DNA of 17,492 bases from Bdellovibrionia bacterium. GTDB lineage: Bacteria; Bdellovibrionota; UBA1018. Position 1 is the stretch's first letter; every line of letters begins with the position of its first letter. The position numbers and the translations under genes were made by a program. The notes under the pieces were generated by a model, which saw only the letters and a list, made by a program, of their open reading frames with translations, had not been told where the DNA came from and did no database searches. Location: positions 1 through 17,492 of the forward strand of contig JBJMMA010000059.1 in NCBI GenBank assembly GCA_045805065.1. The letters run 5' to 3'. Of this stretch, positions 1,720 through 14,450 are shown piece after piece.

Positions 1720-3789
1720 ATGAGAATCACAACTAAAGCAGGGGGTTTGAGCACGATTCGTTTCGTGCTGATATTTAGTGCGGTTGTCATTTCTGCTTTC
1801 TCATCTCCTCAGTTGTTTGCGTTTTCTGAAAATGCTCAAACTTTCACGTATCAGGGCCAGCTGCTCAACAGCTTGGGCAATCCTCTGCTCGACCACACCG
1901 TGGTCCTCGTTCTCTCCATCTACAATCCAGGCAAGACCTGTCTTTTGTACGAAGAGACTCAAACGGTTGATACCTATGCTTCGGATGGAATGTTCTCCGT
2001 TCAAGTCGGACAATCAACGACCACAGGCGGAAAGCGCACTGCAAGCGATCCAGGCCTGAGAATGGCGACGATCTTCAGAAACGATGGATCGCAAGTGCGC
2101 GCTGCGGGCACAAACTGCGCGGGCGGATACACCGCAACCGCAGGCGATACTCGAGTGATGGCCGTGAAAATCACGCCAAGCACCACTGGCATTCAGGTCT
2201 CGCTGACTCCGGATGAAACCATTGATTCGGTTCCACAAGCGTGGTCCGCAGAAACTCTTCAAGGCATCCCAATTGGTAACTTCATTCAGCTCTCCGGCTC
2301 CGACGCTGTGGTGCCGACAGGCTACGGCGTCAAGGTCAATGGATCTGAAGTGATTGATTCGAGCGGTCATTGGGTGGGATCAAGCTCTGGTCTCGCGGGT
2401 CCTACTGGCGCTACGGGTGCCGTTGGCGCAACGGGTGCGACAGGTCCGACTGGTGCCGCTGGTGCAACCGGTCCTACGGGTGCGACGGGTAGCGCGGGTC
2501 CAACTGGATCGAACGGCGCTACTGGTGCGACCGGTGCGACCGGTGCAACGGGATCTGCAGGCTCAGCGGGCTCAACTGGTGCTACGGGTGTTACCGGCGC
2601 TACTGGAGCGACTGGCGCCACGGGCGCTACAGGTACGAATGGTACAAATGGAACAAACGGTGCGACTGGAGCGACGGGTGTTACTGGCGCCACGGGCGCA
2701 ACCGGTGTCACTGGAGCAACGGGTGCTACCGGCGCAAACGGCGCTACTGGAGCGACAGGCGCTACAGGCACGAATGGAACGAATGGAACAAACGGGGCGA
2801 CTGGTGCCACGGGTGCGACAGGCGCAACTGGCGATACCGGAGCCACTGGCGCTACTGGAGCCACTGGTGCTACAGGCGCTACAGGCGCGACCGGTACTAA
2901 CGGTACAAATGGAACCAACGGCGCGACTGGAGCGACGGGTGTTACTGGAGCGACGGGCGCTACTGGTGCCACAGGATCGAACGGCACCAACGGTACGAAT
3001 GGTTCAACAGGCGCGACCGGTGCTACGGGTGCAACAGGTGCCACGGGTGCAACTGGAACGAATGGTACAAATGGTTCGACGGGCGCCACAGGCGCTACGG
3101 GTGCCACTGGCTCGACAGGAGCGACGGGAGCAACTGGCGCAACAGGTGGAAGCCCATTTACGGTGAGCGGATCAGATGCTTACTTCACGGGTGGTAATAT
3201 GGGAGTAGGGGTGACCGGACCCAACACTTCGCTGGATGTGTCTGGTGCAGTTTCGGTCCGTGGAGTGGCTGCGCCTTCGCTTTCGCCTGCAGGCCAGGGT
3301 CGCATCTATTTTGATTCCACACTCAATAAGTTCCAAGTTTCAGAGAATGGCGGTGCGTTTTCAGATCTCAGACTGTGGACGCTCTCGGGATCTTCTGTTT
3401 ATTACGCCAACAGTGTCACGATCGGAAATCAAGCCACACGAACGACTTCATCATCGCGTGGACAGCTTGCGCTCTCGTCGACTTACAGCCAAACGCAGGC
3501 TAGCGCGGCAACGGTGGATTGGAACGTCGGAAATATCCAGGAAGTGGCGTCGTTTGTTTGTAATGGAACCAATACGATCACATTTACCAATATGGCGGAT
3601 GGAGGCGCGTACACTTTGCTTTTAAGTGGCACTGCTGCGCACTCAGGCAATTGTGTTTTCAGTGCGAGCGGATTGACCTTTAAAACATCAGCTGGGGCGG
3701 CTGCGCCGACGGCAAGCAAAGATGTCCTCTTTACCTTTGTTCGAGTCGGCAGTACCGTCATTTACAATATGAGCGACAATTTGCAGTAA
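1720..3789 (+). CDS. Secreted trimeric fibre/adhesin with collagen-like stalk (Bdellovibrio-type phage-tail-fibre-like protein)
   Basis: ATG 1720 follows GGGAG; 689 aa. Signal peptide, then an N-domain [16 protein letters not shown]...[17 protein letters not shown] typical of Bdellovibrio fibre proteins, then Gly-X-Y repeats. Fibre-like motifs [19 protein letters not shown] and [19 protein letters not shown] follow, and a C-terminal beta domain VDWNVGNIQ...[17 protein letters not shown] ends the protein. Confidence 0.85.
2398..3144 (+). repeat. Collagen-like coding repeat: 83 uninterrupted Gly-X-Y triplets (mostly GAT, with GTN blocks)
   Basis: 747 nt of 9-nt period, in frame with the fibre gene. 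GTN/GSN blocks start at 2632, 2767, 2893, 2974 and 3055. Confidence 0.95.
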
Positions 3790-3826
3790 CGCTGATTTGA
3801 GCCATCCTTTAAAAGGAAACTGTCGA

Positions 3827-4123
3827 ATGACCAAGAAAAAATTTCTCTTATTCAACCCGACTAACGGCCTCCATACTTCCTATAACACTCTGCAGGAACT
3901 TCATGCGGCTCGTGAAAAACTTTTACAAATCGAGTTAGAAAAACTTCGCCCGCAATACAGGATCCTGGAAGAGGTTTTTTACGAGAATGGCGATTCGGAG
4001 ACCAGGCCACTTGCAGAAGATCATCCGCACCAAACCGGTGCTCACGTGCAGATGAATTACTCTCACGTCACGCCTTCGATTTCTGAACCTCATCCCTTAA
4101 TCAAGAAAACGGAAACCCTATAA
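3827..4123 (+). CDS. Hypothetical protein (98 aa), no signal peptide; second gene of the fibre operon
   Basis: ATG 3827 follows AAGGA. Its stop overlaps the next start (TAATG at 4121-4125). Confidence 0.7.
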   Translation: MTKKKFLLFNPTNGLHTSYNTLQELHAAREKLLQIELEKLRPQYRILEEVFYENGDSETRPLAEDHPHQTGAHVQMNYSHVTPSISEPHPLIKKTETL

Positions 4124-4710
4124 TGAAACTAGGCGAAGGCGTTTTTTGTCAGAACCTGGCTGAGTTCCCAGAGCTCAATCTTGCGATCACCGTGACGGTT
4201 TTTAAACCGGGTGCGGCCTGTCAGGTGCTTTGGGAAGATCCAAGTCAGCCGATGAATCTCCAAACTTATTTTCGTAGCCATGTTCCGCTGACGGGACCTT
4301 TTAGAATCACGCAAAAGTTTCAAGATGCTCCGGATGAAGATGTGATTGTCGAGCAAGGAGGCCTCTGGCCTCATCAAGAAATCCGCGCGGGCTTTAGGGG
4401 AGTGATTGCGAGACCTCTCCATGGTGAAACCACGGGTGAGCATTTTTGCATTGGACCCATCGATGTCAAAAAACATTCGATGGTCTATCAGAAGCATGAT
4501 CTCAAAGAAGGCAGCTCACTCATAGTGCAGCCTGGAAACTTGCTCCTCGCGTGCGGGAAAAATTACCTGATCAACGGCAAGCAACGATCCTCAAGTGATA
4601 GCCCCTGGAGTATTACAGCTTGCCAGAAAGAGCGAGCTCATGTGCAGGCGATCGAGCCCTGCCGGATTTTGACCTATCAAGCGGTTCCTCATTCGCGAAT
4701 GAAGGTGTAG
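4123..4710 (+). CDS. Hypothetical beta-rich protein (195 aa), no signal peptide; third gene of the fibre operon
   Basis: Translationally coupled to the upstream gene (TAATG) and ends 6 nt before the next ATG. No family recognised. Confidence 0.75.
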   Translation: MKLGEGVFCQNLAEFPELNLAITVTVFKPGAACQVLWEDPSQPMNLQTYFRSHVPLTGPFRITQKFQDAPDEDVIVEQGGLWPHQEIRAGFRGVIARPLHGETTGEHFCIGPIDVKKHSMVYQKHDLKEGSSLIVQPGNLLLACGKNYLINGKQRSSSDSPWSITACQKERAHVQAIEPCRILTYQAVPHSRMKV

Positions 4711-4716
4711 AGTTAA

Positions 4717-5751
4717 ATGAATCGTCGAGCATTTTTACAAATACTCGGATCGTTTTTGCTGCTTTTCACCGAAAAAGCGTTCGGGTTTTTTAATGTATTG
4801 ATGTTCAAGAAAAAGGCGAGCGGATGCACGCCGTCTGTCGTCAACCTCACGATTTCTGCCAATACTCTGAAGTATAATATTTTTACTGCGGCAGGATCTC
4901 CATCCTCATGCGTGACCGTCAATCTGACGATCGATCCTGGGGTCTATGTCTGGAGTGATTCGACGGCAACGGCCGCTATCGAGTTTGGAGCGCTTCCCGC
5001 TGGCTCTACTGTAACCATTACGAACAATGGGTACATCATGGGGATGGGGGGCAAGGGTGGTTCGTGTTTTAATGGCACCGGTAATCCTGGGCCTGGGGCA
5101 GCAGGTGGGCCCGCAATACGATTGACCTGTCCTGCAACGATTAATTCTCAAACCGGTTATGTCCTGGGCGGAGGTGGGGGCGGGGGCGCTGACGGACCAG
5201 AAATGGGTGGCGGTGGCGGTGCGGGTGGCGGTGCTGGGGGTGACGCGGAGAGTACGTCAGGACCAGTGCATTCTTATGGTGGTGCGGGCGGTGCCGTTGG
5301 TTCATCGGGTGCCGCCGGCCAGTATGGGACTGTAGGAGCTGCCTATTACTGTGGAGGAGGGGGCGGCGGAAGAGTCGTACCTAGTACTACAACAGCAGGT
5401 CCCGCACCCACCACAGCCCCAGTCGCTGGCACCGGGGGCTCCGGAGGAGGAACCGGTGCTGCTTATTATTCGACCGACTCGAAGTTTGGCGGGACTGGCG
5501 TGGGAGGGTCGGGCGGAGGACCGGGTGTTGCCGGTGGTAACGCAAGCTCGACGACATCAGGCTCATCGGGTGCGGGAGGCGGAGCCGGTGGTGGCGGCGG
5601 GGGTTATGGAGCCGCGGGTGGAACGGGTTCTTGGAAAGGAGCCGCCGGATTCGCAGGGGGAGCTGGAGGCAACGCGGTTGTACTCAACGGCAAATCCGTG
5701 ACCTGGGTAGGCGGATTAGGCGCCAACAAAGTCTACGGCGCGATTTCCTAA
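4717..5751 (+). CDS. Glycine-rich protein resembling the T-even phage gp38 receptor-binding adhesin, with a twin-arginine (Tat)-like signal peptide
   Basis: 344 aa. The N-terminus MNRRAFLQILGSFLLLFTEKAFG matches R-R-x-F-L plus a hydrophobic core and an AFG cleavage site. The motifs GYIMGMGGKGG, GAAGGPAI, GYVLGGGGGGGA, CGGGGGGR and C-terminal GGAGGNAVV...TW...VYGAIS follow the order I recall for gp38. Confidence 0.75.
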   Translation: MNRRAFLQILGSFLLLFTEKAFGFFNVLMFKKKASGCTPSVVNLTISANTLKYNIFTAAGSPSSCVTVNLTIDPGVYVWSDSTATAAIEFGALPAGSTVTITNNGYIMGMGGKGGSCFNGTGNPGPGAAGGPAIRLTCPATINSQTGYVLGGGGGGGADGPEMGGGGGAGGGAGGDAESTSGPVHSYGGAGGAVGSSGAAGQYGTVGAAYYCGGGGGGRVVPSTTTAGPAPTTAPVAGTGGSGGGTGAAYYSTDSKFGGTGVGGSGGGPGVAGGNASSTTSGSSGAGGGAGGGGGGYGAAGGTGSWKGAAGFAGGAGGNAVVLNGKSVTWVGGLGANKVYGAIS

Positions 5752-5766
5752 ATAAGGCTCAAAAAC

Positions 5767-5819
5767 AAAAAGCCCAGGTCGCATTCCGTTTTACCGGAGA
5801 TTGCGCCTGGGCTTTTTTT
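5767..5819. terminator. Bidirectional rho-independent terminator between convergent genes
   Basis: AAAAAGCCCAGG (5767-5778) pairs with CCTGGGCTTTTT (5806-5817). Inner pairs CGCA/TGCG and TCCG/CGGA extend the stem. There is an A-tract on the left and a T7 tract on the right. Confidence 0.9.
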
Positions 5820-5839: not shown

Positions 5840-7597
5840 TTATTGGTAGTCGCACTCTTTGGCAGTGCCAACGATCGGATCACCGAACGTTGCATTGTTG
5901 CATGCGATGCTTCCGGTAGCAGTCTTGGTGTACCACTTGGTGCCTGCGCCGTAGCGTACCGTCTTGGTCCCGCTGAAGCTGCAGGTGCCGCCTTCAGTCG
6001 CGCACATGGTCCAGGTGTTCGTCGGAGCGCTGCTCATGTCGATGTCGCACTCCTTGGTGTAGCCATAAGCCGGGTCACCAAAGGTTGAGTTGCTGCAGGC
6101 GATGCTTCCCGTTGCAACCTTGGTCGTCCAGCTCGTGCCTGTGCCGTAGCGGATGGTGTAGGTTCCGTTGAAGGTACAAGTGCCATTCTCGGCTGCGCAC
6201 TTCACCCAATTAGATCCCGTTGATGTTGGGCTCGGAGATGGAGTGGCAGTCGCCGTAGGCGTTGGAGTTGGAGTAGCAGTGGCCGTTGGCGTAGGCGATG
6301 GGGTGGTGGACGACATGTCGACGTCGCATTCCTTTGCGGTGCCTACGATTGGGTCACCAAATACCGAGTTGTTGCAGGCGATACTGCCGGTCGCGGTTTT
6401 GGTGGTCCAGCTGGAGCCCGCGCCGTAGCGAACCGTGTGGGTTCCGTTGAAAGTGCAGGTGCCACTCTCACTCGCGCACTTCACCCAATTGGATCCCGTC
6501 GCAGTTGGCGACGGAGAAGGGGATGACGTTGCAGTTGGAGTCGGAGTCGGAGTTGCGGTCGCCGTTGGGGTTGGAGTAGGCGTCGCCGGAGTGCCTGCGC
6601 TTGGCAGGTAAGGAAACGCTGGCATTCCTGCCGCTGCACGGCTTGCATACGTGGTGTTGGACGACGTCGCACCTGCGTTGGAGATGGCGTCAGGTCCAAT
6701 GAACTTGTTGCCACTGATGGAAATCGAAGATGGCTGATTGTAGAAATCAACCGCCGGGCCGTTTCCGCGATCTTCGATCACCGTCGTTCCCGTCATGGTG
6801 AACGTATGAGTGTAAGCGCTGTTGAGGCCTTCTGGTCCATATCCGATCAGATCGTTGTTCTGAGAGTTTGGACCTTTTTCAATCACGCTGTTGGTGATCG
6901 TGACTTGACCGCCGTTGGAGATGTCCAAAGAGCGGCTGTCTTCGCCATCGACAGTAGCGATCACGCTTCCATCGACAATGGTCTTGGCGGCGCGGCTCTT
7001 GAGCGCGTGACCGCCGAGCTTTGCGTGCAGGCTTTGGCTGTTCCGGAAAGTGAAAGAAGCAGACCCACCGATGTACATGTTGTGAGCCATGCCGCTGCCA
7101 GCGTTCATGCCGTTATTATAAAATTTGCTGTTTTGAATGAGGAGGGTGTCACCCGAGGCGCTTGAGAGAAGTCCGTCATCGTTATCGTGGATGTAGACGT
7201 TATCAAGAGTCAGGTTGGAGCCCGCTGCATCATGGCGAATGCCTGCGTAATTCTCATTGTCGGAGGCGCCATAAAGCTCCAGGTTTCTGATGACAGCGTT
7301 TTTTCCAGCCGTCACGATGATGCCCTTTTGACCGCAGACCTTACCGGTCATGGCAGGCATGGTGCCGGTGCCAACGACCGTGATATTGTCCTTAGTAATG
7401 TACATACAGTCATTGTAGGTACCTGATGCGATGGAAATGGTATCTCCCGCAGCAGCTGCGTTCAGTGCCTGGCTTGGCAAAGAGTAGGCGCATCCGCTTT
7501 GGCAGACGTTCAAAGTTGCTGCCATCGCAGGCGTGGACAGTGCTCCTGCCGCACCCAGAGCGATGAGGCTCAACTTTTGAAATCGAAAATAAGTCAT
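5840..7597 (-). CDS. Secreted right-handed parallel beta-helix protein (pectate-lyase-like fold) with Pro/Thr linkers and three Cys-containing lectin-like repeats
   Basis: ATG 7597 follows GGAG; 585 aa. The signal peptide ends AMA. ALNAAAAGDTISIASGTY and the Asn-ladder pattern (NVYIHDNDDG, NSKFYNNG, HNMYIG) indicate a beta-helix. Two PTPTPTATAT linkers and three WxxCAxExGTCxFxG...RYG...CxNxxFGDPxxGxxKECD units follow. Confidence 0.85.
   Translation of the reverse strand: MTYFRFQKLSLIALGAAGALSTPAMAATLNVCQSGCAYSLPSQALNAAAAGDTISIASGTYNDCMYITKDNITVVGTGTMPAMTGKVCGQKGIIVTAGKNAVIRNLELYGASDNENYAGIRHDAAGSNLTLDNVYIHDNDDGLLSSASGDTLLIQNSKFYNNGMNAGSGMAHNMYIGGSASFTFRNSQSLHAKLGGHALKSRAAKTIVDGSVIATVDGEDSRSLDISNGGQVTITNSVIEKGPNSQNNDLIGYGPEGLNSAYTHTFTMTGTTVIEDRGNGPAVDFYNQPSSISISGNKFIGPDAISNAGATSSNTTYASRAAAGMPAFPYLPSAGTPATPTPTPTATATPTPTPTATSSPSPSPTATGSNWVKCASESGTCTFNGTHTVRYGAGSSWTTKTATGSIACNNSVFGDPIVGTAKECDVDMSSTTPSPTPTATATPTPTPTATATPSPSPTSTGSNWVKCAAENGTCTFNGTYTIRYGTGTSWTTKVATGSIACSNSTFGDPAYGYTKECDIDMSSAPTNTWTMCATEGGTCSFSGTKTVRYGAGTKWYTKTATGSIACNNATFGDPIVGTAKECDYQ
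5849..6487 (-). repeat. Three 55-aa (165-nt) coding domain repeats
   Basis: Units lie at 6323-6487, 6044-6208 and 5849-6013, each with four conserved Cys. Confidence 0.9.
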
Positions 7598-7805
7598 TCG
7601 TACTTCTCCAATTCTTAGTGTGAACTCGTCTTGATGATTCTGTTCTCCATCAGAGAACAGAAGTCGAAGTACTGTAAACACTCTAAAAGTTCAGTACAAT
7701 GAGGATTTATTCAATACGGCAAGTTTATTCATTGCCGCATGGTTGAGAAAGGCGAGAGCGAGCAACAGTAAGGGTGCGGTCTGGGATTTGCGAGATGGAG
7801 CGATC

Positions 7806-8816
7806 ATGGCACGATCAACCGCACGAAAAACGAAATCATCAGCAAAACAACTCGCACGCAGAAACAGTACCGCTCTCCGCGGCCGAAACATTCAGGCCCG
7901 TCGCGACGCCTTGGATCGCGCCAAGCAAGGGAAGCCTAAACGCGATGAGCAAAAAGCCGACCGTGCGACTGGCACTTCTGCTAAGCAACATTTGAAAAAG
8001 CCAGGTCTTGAGAAAGACATGGTTCCACGGCCGCATTATCAGGCTCCTTCTTATAAAGGATCCGAAAAACTCAAAGACAAAGTGGCACTTATTACGGGTG
8101 CGGACTCAGGCATTGGCCGCGCGGTTGCTATCCTTTATGCCCGCGAAGGCGCGGACATCGCCATCGTGTATCTCAATGAGGATGAAGATGCGTTTGAGAC
8201 TGCGCAGGAAGTTCGCAAGGAAGGACGCCGAGCGATTCTGATTCCGGGCGATGTTACGGATTTTGATTTCTGCCAGAACGCGGTCGAGCAGACGCTTCAG
8301 GAATTTGGAAAGCTTGATATTCTGGTCAACAATGCCGCGTTCCAAGAGCATGTGGATTCGTTTGATGAGCTTTCCATTGAACAGTGGGATCTGACTTTCA
8401 AGACCAATATTTATGGTTACTTCTATATGGCCAAGGCCGCGCTTCCTCATATGAAGGAGGGAGGGGCGGTCATCAATACGGGCTCTGTGAATGCTTTTCG
8501 TGGAAATAAGAGCCTGATTGATTATTCAGCAACCAAGGGCGCCATTCATGCTTTCACCAAATCTCTTGCGATGAGTCTGGTCGAAAAGAAAATCCGGGTC
8601 AACTGCGTGGCGCCAGGCCCTGTATGGACGCCGTTCATTCCATCGGACTCGCCCGAAGTCAGTCTGGATGAGTTTGGAAAGTCGGTTCCCATGGAGCGCG
8701 CGGCGCAGCCTGAAGAGGTCGCTCCGAGCTTTGTGTTTTTCGCGGCTGAGTCCGATTCAAGCTACATTACTGGCGAGGTCTTGGGTGTCTTAGGTGGCGA
8801 GCCAATGGGAGCTTAA
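7806..8816 (+). CDS. Classical SDR NAD(P)-dependent oxidoreductase, YghA/YdaD (general stress)-like
   Basis: ATG 7806 follows GGAG; 336 aa. Motifs: YKGSEKLKDKVALITGADSGIGRA, NNAA, catalytic YSATK and VNCVAPGPVWTP. The N-terminal extension is Lys/Arg-rich. The stop overlaps the convergent gene's stop (TTAA 8813-8816). Confidence 0.92.
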   Translation: MARSTARKTKSSAKQLARRNSTALRGRNIQARRDALDRAKQGKPKRDEQKADRATGTSAKQHLKKPGLEKDMVPRPHYQAPSYKGSEKLKDKVALITGADSGIGRAVAILYAREGADIAIVYLNEDEDAFETAQEVRKEGRRAILIPGDVTDFDFCQNAVEQTLQEFGKLDILVNNAAFQEHVDSFDELSIEQWDLTFKTNIYGYFYMAKAALPHMKEGGAVINTGSVNAFRGNKSLIDYSATKGAIHAFTKSLAMSLVEKKIRVNCVAPGPVWTPFIPSDSPEVSLDEFGKSVPMERAAQPEEVAPSFVFFAAESDSSYITGEVLGVLGGEPMGA

Positions 8817-9283
8817 AGTGAAGGCACTTTTGAGCTTTCGCACTCTTGTTTGGTGATGGCATATGCGGCTAAGGCTTCGTCATCTGTCATGGGAGCCATC
8901 ATGTCTGCCCAGGTAGCATCGCTACGAAGATTCGGATTTTGAATGTCGAAAGAAACTTGAAATGGAGTTGCTTCGGTCACGGTCTCGCTTGAGAGGAGCT
9001 GGCCCCAGCAGTTGTAGGTATTGTATCGAACCGTTTCCGTGACTTCGGCTTGCCGCTGGTATTGGCCTTGCCAAAACTCCGCTACGTAGTTTCCGAAAGA
9101 AAAGCTGTGAGAGCCTCGGGTCAAAGTGAGCTCCACCGACACTTGACAGGCATTAGAAGTATAAGCCATGGAGCGCGCGAGAACCGTGCGGTAGTGGAGC
9201 GGCCTGTCGCAGTGATAATGTTCGGCGAATGCGGCAGAAGTACTAAGAGCGCAGATGAGGGTTACAAGGGTAGAGTATTTCAT
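8813..9283 (-). CDS. Secreted hypothetical protein (156 aa)
   Basis: ATG 9283 follows GGAG. Signal peptide MKYSTLVTLICALSTSAAFA; four Cys in the mature part. Confidence 0.75.
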   Translation of the reverse strand: MKYSTLVTLICALSTSAAFAEHYHCDRPLHYRTVLARSMAYTSNACQVSVELTLTRGSHSFSFGNYVAEFWQGQYQRQAEVTETVRYNTYNCWGQLLSSETVTEATPFQVSFDIQNPNLRSDATWADMMAPMTDDEALAAYAITKQECESSKVPSL

Positions 9284-9315
9284 ATATTCTCCAGAAAGTA
9301 TTGAAGACTTCATTG

Positions 9316-10410
9316 CTAGAAGTTCAGCAGTAAATGGCCACCTTCAAAAAAGCCACCTGGTCTGCAATCTACTTTGTCGGTCTCAAGAAGGTGTACTGGG
9401 CAGTCCATGAGCCTTCTGATGACAGATTCTGTTTTGAAGAACAGCTCATCATGGACGGCGACGACTCCCTCGGCATTAGGTCCGGTACCGCTACCGCTTT
9501 GACCAATGTAACCTACGACTTTGTCCTGATGAACGAGGCTTTCTGCTATCTTTTTGAAGATCATGGATTTCGGATACTTGGCTCTGAGACTATTGATGTT
9601 TTTTCGGAAGTAGATGTCGCATGGCTCGATTGCCCAGCTGTAATTGTATCCGGCGAGCGGGATCAAACATTTGATATATTCTTCGCCATAGAGCTGGGAA
9701 AGGGGGAACTCACCGCGCTTGTTGACAAAGCCATTTAAGTTTCCCTGAGCCAAGTCCCATTTGGCAAGCGCGTAAACTCCTTTCAGATGGGATGCTCCCA
9801 CTCGAGTGACAAAGTCATAGGCCGCCGCATAATTGTTCGGTTGAGAGAGCACAGCTTGAAATGCCATTTCGGCGCTCACCACCTGGTTGTAAGTCGATTC
9901 AGGGTGAACAATCCAATAGGCCTCGTGAAATAGGATCGCCATCTGGTCATTGTGGCTGAGTTTCTCAAATCCTGGCAAAAGGTAGGTGGTCTTTTGAGGG
10001 ATATCCGTCAGTGCAAAGAGCTGAAGATTGGCGGGGTCCACACCGGTGACGCGCTGAAACTCTGCCATGAGACGCTTGTAGATCTCGGGTGTTAGTTCTT
10101 GAGGTGAGGCCGTGTGATATTGTCTCACGGGTGTGGGCAGAATCGCGTTCAGGAAGTCCGTTCTCACTTTCGTGTCAATCAGCTCAAGGCCTGCGATGTA
10201 GTCAAACAATTCATTGAGAACAGGGATTTGTTCAGGCAGTCCGGAAATGGATTCTTCAGGCTCCACATAAAGTCCTGCGCTATAGAAAGTCATGTACCGG
10301 CCGTTTTTTACTACGCCGCCACCTCCGCCAACACCTTCTCCGCCTTTTCCCGCGTAAGCGGAGGCGAGAGTGGTTAAAAACAACAGGACAGAAATAATCG
10401 TACTTTTCAT
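9316..10410 (-). CDS. Secreted hypothetical protein with N-terminal GGEGVGGGGG motif and HE motif (Bdellovibrionota-type)
   Basis: 364 aa. The signal peptide ends SAYA. Contains ILFHEAYW. The start overlaps the upstream stop (ATGA, 10407-10410). Confidence 0.8.
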   Translation of the reverse strand: MKSTIISVLLFLTTLASAYAGKGGEGVGGGGGVVKNGRYMTFYSAGLYVEPEESISGLPEQIPVLNELFDYIAGLELIDTKVRTDFLNAILPTPVRQYHTASPQELTPEIYKRLMAEFQRVTGVDPANLQLFALTDIPQKTTYLLPGFEKLSHNDQMAILFHEAYWIVHPESTYNQVVSAEMAFQAVLSQPNNYAAAYDFVTRVGASHLKGVYALAKWDLAQGNLNGFVNKRGEFPLSQLYGEEYIKCLIPLAGYNYSWAIEPCDIYFRKNINSLRAKYPKSMIFKKIAESLVHQDKVVGYIGQSGSGTGPNAEGVVAVHDELFFKTESVIRRLMDCPVHLLETDKVDCRPGGFFEGGHLLLNF

Positions 10411-11219
10411 ACGGACTCCTCATTGGATTTTGAAACGGGGGATTTTGAAACGGGATAAAGTTGAAGGGTGAAATTATAGACACGCGTCTGGTTGCCATCT
10501 TCGAGCAAGGCGCAAAGATCGCGACGAAAACGCTGAATGAGCTTTCGCGCCTGATCCAGTTTGGTCTCATCGATTGCCATCGTGATGGAGGTGATGTCTT
10601 TTTCCTCGGGCTGGCATTCGTCCACGGCGATCAAGGCTTTATGAATGAGCTGACGCTGCAGCTCGCGGTGCGCGCTGCTTGTGTTCACTGCGGACTGATT
10701 CGTGTGAAAGCGCGCAGACTTCACCAGCGATTTGTTTTCTACGAGTAGCAGGCCTAATCTTTTAAGGCGCTCAATGGCGGCCTTTGCTTCTTCCTTGGTG
10801 ATCGAGAGCTGACGGGCGATCCAGAGTGGATCGGCCCGAAAGCCGCTGACAAACGTGAGCTCCAGGATGGCGTAGTGGTACCAATCCGATATCGCGGTAA
10901 ACTCGTCGAGGCTGACCTGGTAAAAATCTGGGTTACTGTTTGGGCTGGATTCAATCAAACCAAAGGCTTTGAGGTCGGCAGGTGCCGCGGATAAGCGCTT
11001 GCAGATGGTCAGGATGCCTTTTTTGGAAATCGGACGCTTACCACTTAAGATCTGAGAAAGAGACGAGGCATCTAAATCCAGAGCCTTGGCAAAGGCCCGA
11101 AGCGAGTAGCGCGGGTTGCGTTTGCAACGTTCAGTGAACTGACGCTGCAACCAGAGCCGAAAGTTTAAGCGCTCGGTCTCTTTTGAATGGATCGTTTCCT
11201 GGCCTGTTCCCAATAGCAT
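10407..11219 (-). CDS. TIGR02147/DUF4423-family protein with N-terminal HTH (putative transcriptional regulator)
   Basis: RCKRNPRYSLRAFAKALDLDASSLSQILSGKR, ISDWYHYAILEL and EEKDITSITMAID...VYNFTLQLYP are hallmark motifs of this family. Confidence 0.9.
   Translation of the reverse strand: MLLGTGQETIHSKETERLNFRLWLQRQFTERCKRNPRYSLRAFAKALDLDASSLSQILSGKRPISKKGILTICKRLSAAPADLKAFGLIESSPNSNPDFYQVSLDEFTAISDWYHYAILELTFVSGFRADPLWIARQLSITKEEAKAAIERLKRLGLLLVENKSLVKSARFHTNQSAVNTSSAHRELQRQLIHKALIAVDECQPEEKDITSITMAIDETKLDQARKLIQRFRRDLCALLEDGNQTRVYNFTLQLYPVSKSPVSKSNEESV
10425..10454. repeat. Perfect 15-bp tandem duplication in the 3' end of the TIGR02147 gene
   Basis: GGATTTTGAAACGGG at 10425-10439 and 10440-10454 encodes PVSKS-PVSKS. 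Confidence 0.9.
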
Positions 11220-11226
11220 GGGTCGG

Positions 11227-11255
11227 CTTATAGCGGGCAGGTGCCCAGGAGTCTA
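11227..11255 (-). promoter_or_regulatory. Candidate sigma70-type promoter for the TIGR02147 operon (possibly leaderless)
   Basis: On the minus strand TAGACT (11250-11255), 17 nt, TATAAG (11227-11232), 7 nt, ATG. No Shine-Dalgarno sequence. Confidence 0.4.
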
Positions 11256-11260
11256 GCAAA

Positions 11261-11291
11261 AGTGCCACAATGTGTGGCAGTCGAGTGCCAC
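11261..11291. promoter_or_regulatory. Palindromic operator-like site upstream of the TIGR02147 gene
   Basis: TGCCACA-ATG-TGTGGCA (11263-11279), plus AGTGCCAC repeated at 11261 and 11284. Confidence 0.5.
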
Positions 11292-11293
11292 GG

Positions 11294-13825
11294 CTATGAG
11301 GCCATTCTTTCTTTAGAGTCGGAGGATTCATGAGAATCCATGGACTCAATAAGAACCTGAGACTCTTCAGGCGATGGATTGCGCGACACTTTTCTACCAC
11401 TCCAGATGAGGCCGCTCAGGCCCGCCAGGAACGATCCCAGAATATATGCGAGATAAGCGCTATCTTTAACAGATGCCGCAGCCGAATCGCTGGAGAGGAA
11501 GCTTCCATTGATTCCTGGCAGAGCGCCTTTCACGGCATCGAGCAATGGATGCTTCTGAGGCTGATCCGGTTGATAGTCCTGACCCAGCTCCCAGAGTGAG
11601 ACGCCACCCACTTGATAGTCTCGAACGACCCGAGTTTTTGCGGCCACGGATTGTTCGTTATCGTAAGTGATCCAGCCATCCGATGTTCTGATCCACGGGA
11701 CTTGAGCGGTGCTATCAAAGTTGATCACGTTGGGCGCACGCGAGTAAGTGGCCATGATGTCGGCAAAGCGAATCTGTCCCCGCTTGTTCGGATCAGCGTT
11801 CTTGTTTCGAGGCTGATTTGGGCCCGTGCTTCCATCCCAAAATCTCCATCCGTAGAAGGGGATGCCAAGATTGATTTTGCTCAGTGGCGCACCCGCTTGT
11901 TGATACTGCTGCAGTGTCCAGAGATACGATGAGGTTCCTTGAAAGGCGGCATTGTGCCAGGTGAAATCGCAGCAACTGACATTATCGTAGACCATGACGT
12001 TGAATCGATCGACGTAATTGAACGCGCCGCTTTTCACCCATTGTGAAGCTTGAGACGGAAACGCATCCGTCGTGAGGAGCTTATTTCCGAGTCGTGCTCG
12101 GAGCGCTGCCATCAGCGAGATGATCACGTTTCTTGTGTCCGCATCGTCAATGGATTTTGACCATTCCCAATCGAGATCCAAACCATCGTAACCGTATTGC
12201 GTGAGTGCATCGACAATACGCTGTGCCTCGCGATCGGCACCATCTCGTTTGACGGCGTTGACAAGATTTGCGCCTGAGGTTCCCGCATCCGGGACAAGGT
12301 CATTCACCCAAAGGAGAAGCAGGACTTTGACATTGCGAGCGTGAGCCGCTTGAATGAACTCCGCTTGATCATTGGCAAGATTTCCCCAGCCTGCGTTCAG
12401 ATTGATGCTTCCATCGGTATTGAAAGCCGCGCAGCAGTGAATGGCGTGAGTGAGGCCTGTCCAATCAATTGCAGACACGGGAGTGCCATCGGCAGGGTAG
12501 TAGGATCCCAAGCTCCATTGATCAATCGAGGATGTTGGATAAATCTCAAAAGGTTTCACTGCGCCTGAGTCCGTGCCCAAAGAGATGGTTTGATAGTAGC
12601 GCTTGAGATTCCAACCCATGGCGTCGGACATCGTTGAAATGCCATTCCAGGAGGACCAGCCTTTGTCGGTAGAAACCCAGCACTCCATGCCAAAGGCCCC
12701 GCGGCCGCAAACATCAGCTCTTCCATCACCATTGATATCGGCCAGGCGAATGGTTTGATAGTATTCAGGCACGCCCCATCCCATGGCGTCAGACATCGTT
12801 GTAATGCCGTACCAGGGCGTCCAGCCGCTACCAGATGAAATCCAGCAGTAGAGTCCTGCAGCGCCACGTGCGCAGAGATCGGCTTTGCCATCCCCATTGA
12901 TGTCGGCAAGCTGAATGGTTTGATAGCCCACCGGGCTCGTCCATCCACCCGCATCCGAAAGTGTAGGAATGCCTGCGACTCGAACCCATCCACTGTTAGT
13001 GGACGTCCAGCACTCAATGCCTCCGCCGCCGCGCCCGCAAAGGTCAGCGCGTCCGTCTCCATTGATGTCAGCCATCTGGATCGTTTGATAGTACTGAGGC
13101 TTGTTCCACCCCATGGCATCTGACATCGTTGAAATTCCGTACCAAGGAACCCAATCCGTGCCCGTTGAAATCCAGCACTCAAGACCGTATCCGCCGCGTC
13201 CGCAGAGATCGGCTTTGCCATCGCCGTTGATATCAGCAAAATGAATCGTTTGGTAATACTCCGGGCGATTCCAGCCCATAGCATTGGAGAGTGTTGGGAT
13301 CCCTTTGTGAGGAATCCATCCCGAGGCGCTCGAGGTCCAGCACATGAGTCCGCCTGCGCCTCGGACGCAAACGTCGGCTCTGCCATCGCCATTGATGTCA
13401 GCAAGGCGAATCGTCTGATAGTACTCAGGCCTGAACCAGCCTGCGGCATCGGACAAAGTTTGAATCGAAAAGGTCGGGCTCCAACCGCCCGCGTCCCAGA
13501 GCCAGCAAAGAAGACCTGCGGAACCGCGTGCGCAGACATCCGCTTTGCCATCTCCATTGATGTCAGCGAGCTGAATGGTTTCGTAGCCTATGGCCTGATT
13601 CCATCCGCCTGCATCCGAGAGAGTGGGGATTCCTGCAATCGATGTCCAGCCTGAAGGGCTTGCTGTCCAGCATTCAAGACCGTATCCGCCGCGTCCGCAA
13701 AGTTTTGTGTCACGGCTGCTCAGGAGTGCGCTTCTGGAGGAACTGGATCCTTGATCAACGACAAGACAGCCTTGAAATAACGTGGCCATCAAAAGCGCGA
13801 GAGCGGCATGGCGAATCAACATCAT
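11294..13825 (-). CDS. Putative lipoprotein: FG-GAP/VCBS-like 7-repeat beta-propeller + GH18 (chitinase-like) domain + C-terminal hydrophobic helix
   Basis: 843 aa with an LFQGC lipobox-like site and six ADINGDG[KR]AD motifs at 55-aa period. GH18 motifs: IDWTGLTHAI, DGLDLDWE (DxxDxDxE intact), VMVYD, KINLGIPFYG, WITYDNEQS, GGVSLWELGQD. The tail contains YLAYILGSFLAGLSGLIW. Confidence 0.9.
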   Translation of the reverse strand: MMLIRHAALALLMATLFQGCLVVDQGSSSSRSALLSSRDTKLCGRGGYGLECWTASPSGWTSIAGIPTLSDAGGWNQAIGYETIQLADINGDGKADVCARGSAGLLCWLWDAGGWSPTFSIQTLSDAAGWFRPEYYQTIRLADINGDGRADVCVRGAGGLMCWTSSASGWIPHKGIPTLSNAMGWNRPEYYQTIHFADINGDGKADLCGRGGYGLECWISTGTDWVPWYGISTMSDAMGWNKPQYYQTIQMADINGDGRADLCGRGGGGIECWTSTNSGWVRVAGIPTLSDAGGWTSPVGYQTIQLADINGDGKADLCARGAAGLYCWISSGSGWTPWYGITTMSDAMGWGVPEYYQTIRLADINGDGRADVCGRGAFGMECWVSTDKGWSSWNGISTMSDAMGWNLKRYYQTISLGTDSGAVKPFEIYPTSSIDQWSLGSYYPADGTPVSAIDWTGLTHAIHCCAAFNTDGSINLNAGWGNLANDQAEFIQAAHARNVKVLLLLWVNDLVPDAGTSGANLVNAVKRDGADREAQRIVDALTQYGYDGLDLDWEWSKSIDDADTRNVIISLMAALRARLGNKLLTTDAFPSQASQWVKSGAFNYVDRFNVMVYDNVSCCDFTWHNAAFQGTSSYLWTLQQYQQAGAPLSKINLGIPFYGWRFWDGSTGPNQPRNKNADPNKRGQIRFADIMATYSRAPNVINFDSTAQVPWIRTSDGWITYDNEQSVAAKTRVVRDYQVGGVSLWELGQDYQPDQPQKHPLLDAVKGALPGINGSFLSSDSAAASVKDSAYLAYILGSFLAGLSGLIWSGRKVSRNPSPEESQVLIESMDSHESSDSKERMAS
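12575..13705 (-). repeat. Seven 55-aa coding repeats (propeller blades)
   Basis: CxRGxxGxxCW...W...IxT[LM]S[DN]AxGW...YxTI occurs seven times. Boundaries are approximate. Confidence 0.9.
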
Positions 13826-13925: not shown

Positions 13926-14450
13926 CTAAGAGCAGAAATGATCTCTGCACATACTGGATCCCATGCACTCGCTTGAAGAGTTGCAATGACCGCCTGGAGG
14001 GATATTGTTGATCCCGGGGTCGGTGCAGTAGTTGTCACGACACATGCTGGCTCCCTGGCATTCGCTTGAGTGCTCGCAGCGACCCCCGGGAGGAACGTTG
14101 TTGGTGCCTGGGTTAGAGCAAAAGCCATTGTGGCACATGCTGGCTCCCACGCACTCGCTCGAGGAGTCGCAATGACCTCCAGGAGGGATGTTGTTGACCC
14201 CGGGATCTGAGCAATAACCATTACGACAGAAGCTGGCGCCGCAGCAATCGCTGGAGTATGAGCAAACGACTCCAGGGTCTCGACATCCACTTGCGGCAAA
14301 CGTATTGAGCTCATTGCGGTCAAAGAGCTCTTTGCTTTTTTTGAGAAGCGAGTTTGCAGCCGGGTTGGTCGAGCAGTCAGACGCGATGCTGTTTCCAGCA
14401 AATGAGCAAAGCGATAGAGCCAAGAGTACTAGCGAGAGAAACGTTCTCAT
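13926..14450 (-). CDS. Secreted Cys-rich protein with four C-x5-C-x5-C-x4-C modules
   Basis: 174 aa; AAGGA upstream; signal peptide. Three 31-aa repeats of type DPGxNNIPPGGHCxSSSECxGASMCxxxFCS (13929-14207) plus one shorter unit (14208-14279). Confidence 0.8.
   Translation of the reverse strand: MRTFLSLVLLALSLCSFAGNSIASDCSTNPAANSLLKKSKELFDRNELNTFAASGCRDPGVVCSYSSDCCGASFCRNGYCSDPGVNNIPPGGHCDSSSECVGASMCHNGFCSNPGTNNVPPGGRCEHSSECQGASMCRDNYCTDPGINNIPPGGHCNSSSECMGSSMCRDHFCS

Follow-up and report, generated by a model that had tools for sequence, protein, structure and literature searches.

A collagen-stalked MAT-family fibre and a gp38-type protein with a predicted Tat leader are encoded in a candidate operon of a Bdellovibrionia bacterium: a possible two-part fibre

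Introduction

We analysed contig JBJMMA010000059.1 of a Bdellovibrionia bacterium (assembly GCA_045805065.1; genome 4.2 Mb, 262 contigs, 94% complete). The stretch studied, referred to here as the window, is the entire contig of 17,492 nt, and it carries four co-oriented genes that encode a collagen-stalked fibre, two small proteins (g2 and g3) and a glycine-rich protein (g4). The results suggest, with a probability that we put at roughly 0.5, that this Bdellovibrio-like soil bacterium has domesticated a phage fibre-tip kit and that the operon specifies a two-part fibre. The operon looks like a domesticated phage module of putative docking domain, adhesin and helper, since the tip domain also adjoins gp38-like genes in viral contigs and in the cultured phage Mel-JY34.

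MAT fibres are at present the leading candidates for how Bdellovibrio-like predators choose their prey. The MAT fibres of B. bacteriovorus, of which there are 21 in HD100, all have a beta-rich domain of ~130 amino acids (aa) right after the signal peptide (PMC10769870). In phage S16, the adhesin gp38 grips the fibre protein gp37 via an N-terminal three-helix bundle with a conserved tryptophan at each tip (PMC6851490), and a three-domain description of gp38 has been given (PMC12032242).

The predicted fold of g4 is that of gp38

The AlphaFold2 (AF2) model of g4, built from 114 sequences, had a predicted local distance difference test (pLDDT) score of 89.2 and a predicted template modelling score of 0.86. 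Foldseek returned three PDB chains at E ≤ 0.001, and all three were gp38, namely two chains of the PP01 protein (9V85, E 2e-7) and chain D of the S16 protein (6F45, E 4e-5); the next match had an E-value of 2.8. With a second structure aligner, g4 matched 6f45_D with Z 21.9 (209 residues aligned, root mean square deviation (rmsd) 4.5 Å) and 9v85_A with Z 21.1 (204 aligned, rmsd 2.4 Å), and the next structure followed at Z 6.9. Since S16 and PP01 gp38 were the only significant PDB matches with Foldseek and with the second aligner, the assignment of the modelled g4 to the gp38 fold, i.e. a beta-helix plus a polyglycine sandwich, is firm.

The composition and the relatives of g4 were examined as well. 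Glycine makes up 31% of the mature protein, with four runs of 5–7 residues, and in the family the glycine runs are conserved and the segments between them variable. The protein collection held 272 relatives, and the 120 that were listed all carried the precomputed tag PF05268 (GP38). When seven homologues were rescanned, GP38 was listed for 7/7 and only P0075 (34.4 bits) lay above the 25-bit cut-off. The PHROG matches of g4 were weak (a family of unknown function at 9.5e-12 and a tail-fibre family at 1.2e-6), and the search of cultured phages with g4 gave one match, a number that was probably limited by the low-complexity filter.

The leader of g4 displayed, by eye, an RR-x-F-L motif, a hydrophobic core and an A-F-G site, as in a twin-arginine translocation (Tat) signal, and the same genome encodes TatC (218 bits). 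Leaders of the RR type were also present in the closest relatives (P0002–P0004) and at locus L019 of an Oligoflexia metagenome-assembled genome (MAG), and the relative at locus L009 had a Sec-type leader. Directly after the predicted signal, mature g4 opens with a short peptide that is first hydrophobic and then basic, and a similar peptide is kept in the secreted relatives (P0002–P0004, L019). In the wider family, most viral members had an N-terminal module of ~55–65 residues, some members had a signal and a fibre neck, and a minority had only a short hydrophobic N-terminus.

Two side observations concern g4 relatives. The Oligoflexia MAG locus L009 carries a stand-alone gp38-like gene with a Sec signal (7941–8978) and, at 9262–12540, a gene for a 1092-aa protein in which a signal and many ~80-aa repeats are joined to a C-terminal gp38-like domain, so that one chain contains both stalk and tip. 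Furthermore, many marine alphaproteobacterial sequences (L010–L032, mostly from Rhodobacterales genomes) matched the first ~100 residues of the g4 beta-helix domain; these matches may lie in prophages or in gene-transfer-agent tail genes.

The fibre has a MAT-type N-terminus, a collagen-like stalk and a separate tip domain

The fibre protein starts, by eye, with a basic n-region and a hydrophobic core, and cleavage is likely after residue 34. The N-terminal domain (residues 33–192) matched NF053851 (Bdello_MAT_N) with 97.8 bits against a cut-off of 60. The genome contains 16 Bdello_MAT_N genes, all above the cut-off, and none of the 14 control genomes has one. On its sequence, the fibre thus classifies as a member of the Bdellovibrio MAT family.

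The triplets of the stalk are mostly Gly-Ala-Thr, with four Pro and no Lys, and they matched Pfam Collagen with an E-value of 5.9e-38; the long uninterrupted Gly-X-Y repeat is of the kind that defines the collagen triple helix. The neck after the stalk is a widespread fibre motif and matched Bd2133 (PDB 8OND) at 3.2e-6. There was no Peptidase_S74 match in the Pfam scan of the fibre, which would therefore be of the non-S74 type. A trimer is implied by the collagen repeat, and trimeric state and surface location would both be expected by analogy with the MAT family.

The C-terminal tip domain occurs in six fibre genes of the same genome. Its homologues elsewhere show 57–70% identity and are found on quite different stalks, some of them without collagen; the named ones come from Pseudobdellovibrionaceae and Bacteriovorax MAGs. 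No relative of solved structure was found for this domain by sequence. As a side observation, two of the tip-domain MAT fibres of this genome are directly followed by genes for related large secreted proteins of 726 and 521 aa without a Pfam family (C83:18910–21090 and C90:4984–6549).

Phage fibre genes with the tip domain adjoin gp38-like genes

A non-iterated profile of the tip domain, made from 32 distinct copies, was run on 98 loci with gp38-like genes (12,199 segments), at least 61 of which were viral; an iterated profile was set aside because its envelopes had drifted. At E ≤ 0.01 there were at least four viral matches, two in L100 (2.7e-6 and 7.2e-6) and one each in L135 (1e-4) and L095 (5e-3). 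All four were C-terminal in their open reading frames (ORFs), and the ORF stop lay within 21 nt of the start of the gp38-like match in each case. In L095, the genes are arranged in the row fibre tip, gp38-like, g2-like. The cultured Microcystis phage Mel-JY34 (PP438425.1) showed the same pairing: the protein annotated as its putative tail fibre has the tip domain at its C-terminal end (3.5e-6), and the tail fibre gene overlaps the start of a gp38-like gene (2.2e-40) that is annotated as hypothetical. When a narrow tip alignment of five sequences was compared with the L100 proteins by hhalign, the signal was weak (probability 0.2–1.3%).

The adhesins paired with tip-domain fibres in phages have short hydrophobic N-termini, and those behind S74-type fibres (L132, L138) have a long N-terminal module. 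Our literature search found no experimental study of the Mel-JY34, L100, L135 and L095 pairs.

It was also observed that the pair of tip-domain and gp38-like genes is tandemly duplicated in the viral contig L100 (1064–8196), where the second tip protein, of 125 aa, resembles a bare adaptor.

g2 belongs to a family that accompanies gp38-like genes

Neither g2 nor g3 has a hydrophobic N-terminus by eye, and neither has a family name in Pfam, PHROGs or NCBIfam. The ESM Atlas leads for both had scores below 0.9.

A single-sequence search with g2 (phmmer) of the 61 viral loci listed with gp38-like genes matched at least three small ORFs, including ones in L132 and L090, with E-values of 7e-4 to 6.5e-3. 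After two iterations, the g2 profile matched at least 20 segments in at least 18 of the 98 gp38-like loci (17 viral loci and the Oligoflexia locus L019). As the E-values after iteration are inflated by members scoring against themselves, the positions of the segments served as the independent check. Among the matches listed, 20/20 were on the same strand as the gp38-like gene and started between −9 and +250 nt from its stop, 16 of them within 20 nt. The profile gave no match in control loci that lack gp38-like genes (197 kb), and in the 15,952 segments of the bacterium's own genome it found the g2 of the window alone. Judged from these positions, the g2 family is a conserved phage partner of gp38-like genes. 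It has no name, and as the constant companion of gp38-like genes among the matches listed it is a candidate folding helper.

g3 is a rare protein: a search of 1.84 billion proteins yielded six representatives, and a single near copy shares 82% identity with it. Its AF2 model (pLDDT 90.5) was closest to the bicupin 1rc6_B (Z 10.7, 168 residues aligned, rmsd 4.5 Å), followed by 6uts (Z 10.5), and 49 chains had Z ≥ 8. The model thus describes g3 as bicupin-like. A Pfam match was lacking, and no His, Asp or Glu was invariant across seven family members, and this speaks against a metal enzyme. In viruses, the best structural look-alikes were uncharacterised phage proteins, including those of the T4-like cyanophages P-HM1 and P-HM2 (Foldseek, 1e-6 to 5e-5). 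Among the matches listed, one g3 relative (3.5e-9) was encoded two genes 3' of a gp38-like gene, in the viral locus L138. A 180-aa protein of L132 was also considered as a g3 relative and was rejected on comparison.

The four genes form a compact cellular locus

The features of the locus are collected in Table 1. The fibre gene and g2 are separated by 37 nt, g2 and g3 overlap by 1 nt (TAATG), and 6 nt lie between g3 and g4. Downstream of g4, a hairpin at ~5771–5813 is followed by a T run to 5819 (−33.2 kcal/mol, z −5.2, none of 200 shuffles being as good), with an A run and a T run on its two sides. A simple consensus terminator scan overlooked this hairpin because the loop is long, and the same scan found no terminator-like site in the gap between the fibre gene and g2 or at the other two gene junctions. 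The tight spacing, the single terminator and the lack of terminator-like sites between the genes make co-transcription of the fibre gene, g2, g3 and g4 plausible.

The other 13 ORFs of the contig that were scanned gave no match to capsid, portal or integrase proteins. The identified neighbours encode a GNAT acetyltransferase, a secreted beta-helix protein, a short-chain dehydrogenase, a DUF4423 protein, a GH18/FG-GAP protein and a LysR regulator. These results support a cellular locus rather than a prophage.

An earlier note on this DNA had described the four closely spaced genes with their one terminator, a Sec-signal collagen fibre, two signal-less small proteins and a Tat-signal polyglycine protein, the absence of phage genes nearby and a link of the fibre to Bdellovibrio MAT proteins. 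The spacing proved exact to the nucleotide, and the hairpin, the glycine runs, the Pfam Collagen match, the empty scan for phage genes and the NF053851 score agreed with this description, the signals being judged by eye.

Table 1. Positions of the four genes, their predicted parts and the terminator in the window
Feature	Positions	Strand	Description and basis
Fibre gene	1720–3789	+	689 aa from the ATG at 1720; a longer TTG frame opens at 1684; ORF call, Pfam Collagen, NCBIfam Bdello_MAT_N
Predicted Sec signal peptide	1720–1821	+	Fibre residues 1–34; by inspection
MAT-family N-terminal beta-rich domain	1816–2295	+	Fibre residues 33–192; NCBIfam NF053851
Collagen-like stalk	2389–3153	+	85 uninterrupted Gly-X-Y triplets, fibre residues 224–478
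C-terminal tip domain	3385–3786	+	134 aa, proposed docking platform; comparisons with homologues and phage genes
g2	3827–4123	+	98-aa cytoplasmic protein, kin encoded just 3' of gp38-like genes; profile search
g3	4123–4710	+	195-aa cytoplasmic bicupin-like protein, no conserved metal site; AF2 model, fold comparison
g4	4717–5751	+	344-aa gp38-type adhesin (beta-helix plus polyglycine-II sandwich) with a twin-arginine leader; AF2, Foldseek
Predicted Tat signal	4717–4785	+	g4 residues 1–23, RR at residues 3–4; by inspection
Short hydrophobic-then-basic peptide	4786–4815	+	Ten residues at the predicted mature N-terminus of g4; candidate docking element
Bidirectional intrinsic terminator	5771–5819	both	Common to g4 and the convergent gene at 5840–7681; fold test

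A model of the two-part fibre

According to the model that we consider the best explanation, the first gene would give rise to a trimeric MAT-family surface fibre exported through Sec. g4 would be a single-chain receptor-binding protein that attains its fold in the cytoplasm, assisted by g2 and perhaps by g3, and the folded protein would then be exported by the Tat pathway. During phage infection, the gp38 fold normally arises in the host cytoplasm, and a need of the polyglycine sandwich for cytoplasmic folding may be the reason why Tat is used. Outside the cytoplasm, g4 would cap the fibre via the fibre's C-terminal domain; we infer this docking from the fact that the same domain ends phage fibre genes abutting gp38-like genes. 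Because the helical attachment domain of gp38 is absent from g4, the contact would probably be made through the short hydrophobic N-terminal peptide of g4. The loops of the glycine sandwich would select the prey or the surface receptor.

A bolder version of the model is tentative, and we think it somewhat more likely to be wrong than right. It holds that a predatory-type bacterium took over a complete phage fibre-tip system, consisting of docking domain, gp38-type adhesin and folding helper, and joined a Sec-exported fibre with a Tat-exported, pre-folded adhesin into a two-part prey-recognition fibre. More broadly, both phages and predators may use the tip domain as a general socket for interchangeable binders encoded downstream (gp38-like, LamG, TIG or glycine-rich), each opening with a short hydrophobic peptide.

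The data on the genes downstream of tip-domain ORFs bear on this idea. A same-strand ORF of at least 150 aa closely followed 20/28 tip ORFs of the metagenome and order-level loci, and among ten downstream partners scanned, three had Pfam matches (TIG; fn3 and a glycine-rich domain; LamG). Many of the partners open with a short cluster of bulky hydrophobic residues, which comes after the signal in cells and stands at the very start in phage-like contigs. With a profile of six gp38-family peptides, the C90 partner ranked 3rd among the 15,952 segments of its genome but had an E-value of 9, and a partner from another genome (G114) ranked 8th of 2,783. When a motif was learned unsupervised from the N-termini of 17 partners at other loci, C90d came 929th and C83d 2,314th of 4,696. 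As the ranking by this motif was poor, we propose no defined docking sequence motif but a recurring short hydrophobic N-terminus, and we regard the shared docking peptide as a lead only.

A multimer fold of three copies of fibre residues 540–689 with g4 residues 36–344 scored 0.00; the result counts neither way, the construct having cut off g4 residues 24–35 with the candidate docking peptide.

A side observation concerns the same kind of peptide: an 898-aa secreted NHL-repeat protein of this genome (C251:30420–33116), with no fibre gene nearby, has a post-signal peptide like those of g4 and the C90 partner. Instead of serving in docking, such a peptide may act as a lineage-specific tag for sorting or anchoring.

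Observations that weigh against a docked tip, and other explanations

Several results count against the two-part fibre, and the first group concerns the gene neighbourhoods. g2 and g3 sit between the fibre gene and g4, whereas the phage pairs have the adhesin gene immediately next to the fibre gene. The tip domain was absent at E ≤ 0.01 from 58 of the 61 viral loci listed. Within the order, 2/116 genomes have g4-like genes and 5/116 have the tip domain (this genome is included in both counts), and the present genome is the only one with both. A genome of the same genus, which has ~70% DNA identity and in which the nearest fibre copy runs off the contig end, gave neither a g4-like gene nor a tip domain with these queries. 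In the 36 genome loci with g4 relatives, no fibre N-domain, tip domain, g2 or g3 was found by tblastn at 1e-3, and the g3 profile had no match there either; the nearest cellular g4 loci (L009, L019 and L007) have no adjacent fibre. Conversely, none of the 23 metagenome tip-domain loci yielded a gp38-like gene, and inspection of seven order-level tip loci revealed no gp38-like gene after the tip ORFs. Of the other five tip-domain copies in the genome, two precede the secreted-protein genes on C83 and C90, and downstream of the remaining three lie an ABC ATPase gene, nothing of note and another fibre gene, respectively.

The second group concerns g4 itself. The structural match to 6f45_D begins at chain residue 32 and covers residues 32–249, so that the attachment domain of gp38 has no counterpart; the g4 model before residue 36 has low confidence and contains the signal helix only, and the first Trp of g4 is residue 79. 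By its model, g4 is thus devoid of the N-terminal three-helix tryptophan attachment domain of gp38. The Pfam scan assigned no family to g4 even at E 10, the gathering threshold of PF05268 not being reached. The unsupervised N-terminal motif ranked g4 505th of 4,696. No Tat-signal profile matched g4 in the Pfam and NCBIfam scans; short leaders often escape such profiles, and since no curated profile matched, the Tat assignment is based on the motif. Finally, the model offers no route for the fibre or for g4 across the outer membrane.

The main alternative explanation is that the fibre is independent of a g2-g3-g4 cassette. g4 would then be a secreted binder that is free or otherwise anchored, for example through a Tat leader that stays uncleaved or through the hydrophobic peptide at its N-terminus, and the adjacency would come from clustering or co-regulation of surface or predation genes. 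The cellular g4 relatives without a fibre gene, the g4-like peptide on the C251 protein, the missing attachment domain and the single genome with both parts all speak for this explanation, as does the finding that g2 and a gp38-like gene form a self-contained unit in at least 18 loci. On the other hand, the tip domain abuts gp38-like genes in 4/4 of the viral matches listed and in Mel-JY34, which is hard to explain unless the parts cooperate, at least in phages, and only 37 nt without a terminator separate the cassette from the fibre gene. A further cellular case is possible: for P0002, the relative closest to g4, and for P0134, a close homologue of the tip domain, the records list two contigs each, with a maximum length of 83,199 nt in both cases, and this suggests that the two share one contig. 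We judge an independent cassette to be less likely than the two-part fibre.

A second explanation is that g2, g3 and g4 help to assemble the fibre, in the way that gp37 depends on T4 gp38 and gp57A, and are absent from the finished structure. Chaperone genes commonly lie just after phage fibre genes, T4 gp38 being an example (PMC12032242, PMC6851490); moreover, the Pfam scan gave no S74 intramolecular chaperone in the MAT fibre. The fold predicted for g4, however, is that of the T2/S16 type of adhesin, which is very unlike T4 gp38 in sequence (PMC6851490). With its Sec-type signal, the fibre would acquire its fold beyond the cytoplasm, but g2 and g3 lack signals, and g2-like genes follow gp38-like genes whatever fibre precedes them, including S74-bearing fibres (L132). 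A role restricted to fibre assembly is therefore improbable, and it fits the signals and folds poorly. The same poor fit applies to a decaying prophage tail-fibre remnant with no present function, which is very improbable in spite of the viral location of the nearest relatives or look-alikes of g2, g3 and g4 and the patchy distribution among relatives, as all four frames are intact and tightly coupled, the cellular MAT N-domain has 15 paralogues, both exported proteins carry leaders that phage virion proteins do not need, and the 17.5-kb contig has no other phage gene.

Comparison with known systems

In the domesticated two-part fibre proposed here, g4 resembles gp38 of the gp37-gp38 systems of T2/T6/S16/PP01-type Straboviridae in that (i) it combines a beta-helix with a three-layer polyglycine-II sandwich (25–29% identity), and (ii) it is encoded in the same candidate operon as the fibre gene. 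It differs from gp38 by its Tat-type leader and its 10-residue hydrophobic/basic peptide, which stand in place of the three-helix attachment domain. gp37 and the fibre are unrelated, the genes belong to a cellular locus, and two putative helper genes lie between the fibre and adhesin genes.

The earlier note had proposed a domesticated gp37/gp38 design in which the tip docks on the C-terminal domain of the fibre. The resemblance of g4 to gp38 holds at the level of the predicted fold, but the fibre is not gp37-like and the attachment domain is absent. Docking on the C-terminal domain gained comparative support from the phage fibre genes that abut gp38-like genes, whereas the gp37/gp38 mode of docking is ruled out for g4 because the three-helix tryptophan domain is missing. 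The two small proteins are not bystanders, g2 having phage relatives next to gp38-like genes, and the linkage of the genes, for which the note had suggested a neighbourhood survey, is not conserved among cellular relatives.

Like the Bdellovibrio MAT fibres, the fibre has the N-terminal domain directly after the signal, a large paralogue family (16 here), a mosaic C-terminal tip and a Bd2133-type neck, and it would be of the non-S74 type. Unlike the fibres described by Caulton et al. (2024; PMC10769870), it has a long collagen-like stalk, and a gene for a separate gp38-type protein and helper genes follow downstream. The words gp38, polyglycine and collagen do not occur in that paper.

The Mel-JY34, L100, L135 and L095 pairs share with this locus the C-terminal fibre domain, the adhesin family and the short hydrophobic N-termini of the adhesins, and L095 also has a g2-like gene. 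In contrast to the present arrangement, the adhesin gene in phages abuts or overlaps the fibre gene, export signals are absent and the helper gene comes after the adhesin gene.

The stalk is comparable to those of the secreted proteins Scl1/Scl2, BclA and Lcl in its long Gly-X-Thr-rich triple-helix repeat (NCBIfam and PDB matches, below family cut-offs). Unlike them, the fibre has neither an LPXTG anchor nor a BclA-type C1q-like head, and its ends are of the MAT and phage-fibre types.

Among the papers that our literature searches found, none, judged by title and abstract, described a cellular exported homologue of gp38; they dealt with phages and with models of mycobacterial PE_PGRS proteins instead. 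The earlier note's statement that it knew of no description of the arrangement agrees with this. What is new is the pairing of a collagen-stalked fibre with a putatively exported gp38-type protein and a candidate helper.

If the two-part fibre is real, a separately encoded, exchangeable gp38-type tip would provide a second way to vary specificity, and g4 would be a candidate receptor-binding protein open to testing. At the level of the predicted fold, the finding extends gp38, an adhesin familiar from T-even phages, to cellular genomes, and a g2-like helper could serve the expression of gp38-type adhesins.

Other observations in the window

Four sequencing runs of soil DNA, all from one study, contained short pieces identical to the window, none of which spanned a gene junction; they are uninformative on expression or synteny.

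The convergent gene at 5840–7681 (minus strand) encodes a 613-aa secreted right-handed beta-helix protein (Pfam Beta_helix, 4.5e-8), with three C-terminal repeats of ~60 aa that contain Cys and are joined by Thr/Pro/Ser linkers. The gene at 13926–14450 (minus strand) encodes a 174-aa protein that matched the EB module (Pfam EB, 6.5e-14) and other cysteine-rich families, which is unusual in a bacterium.

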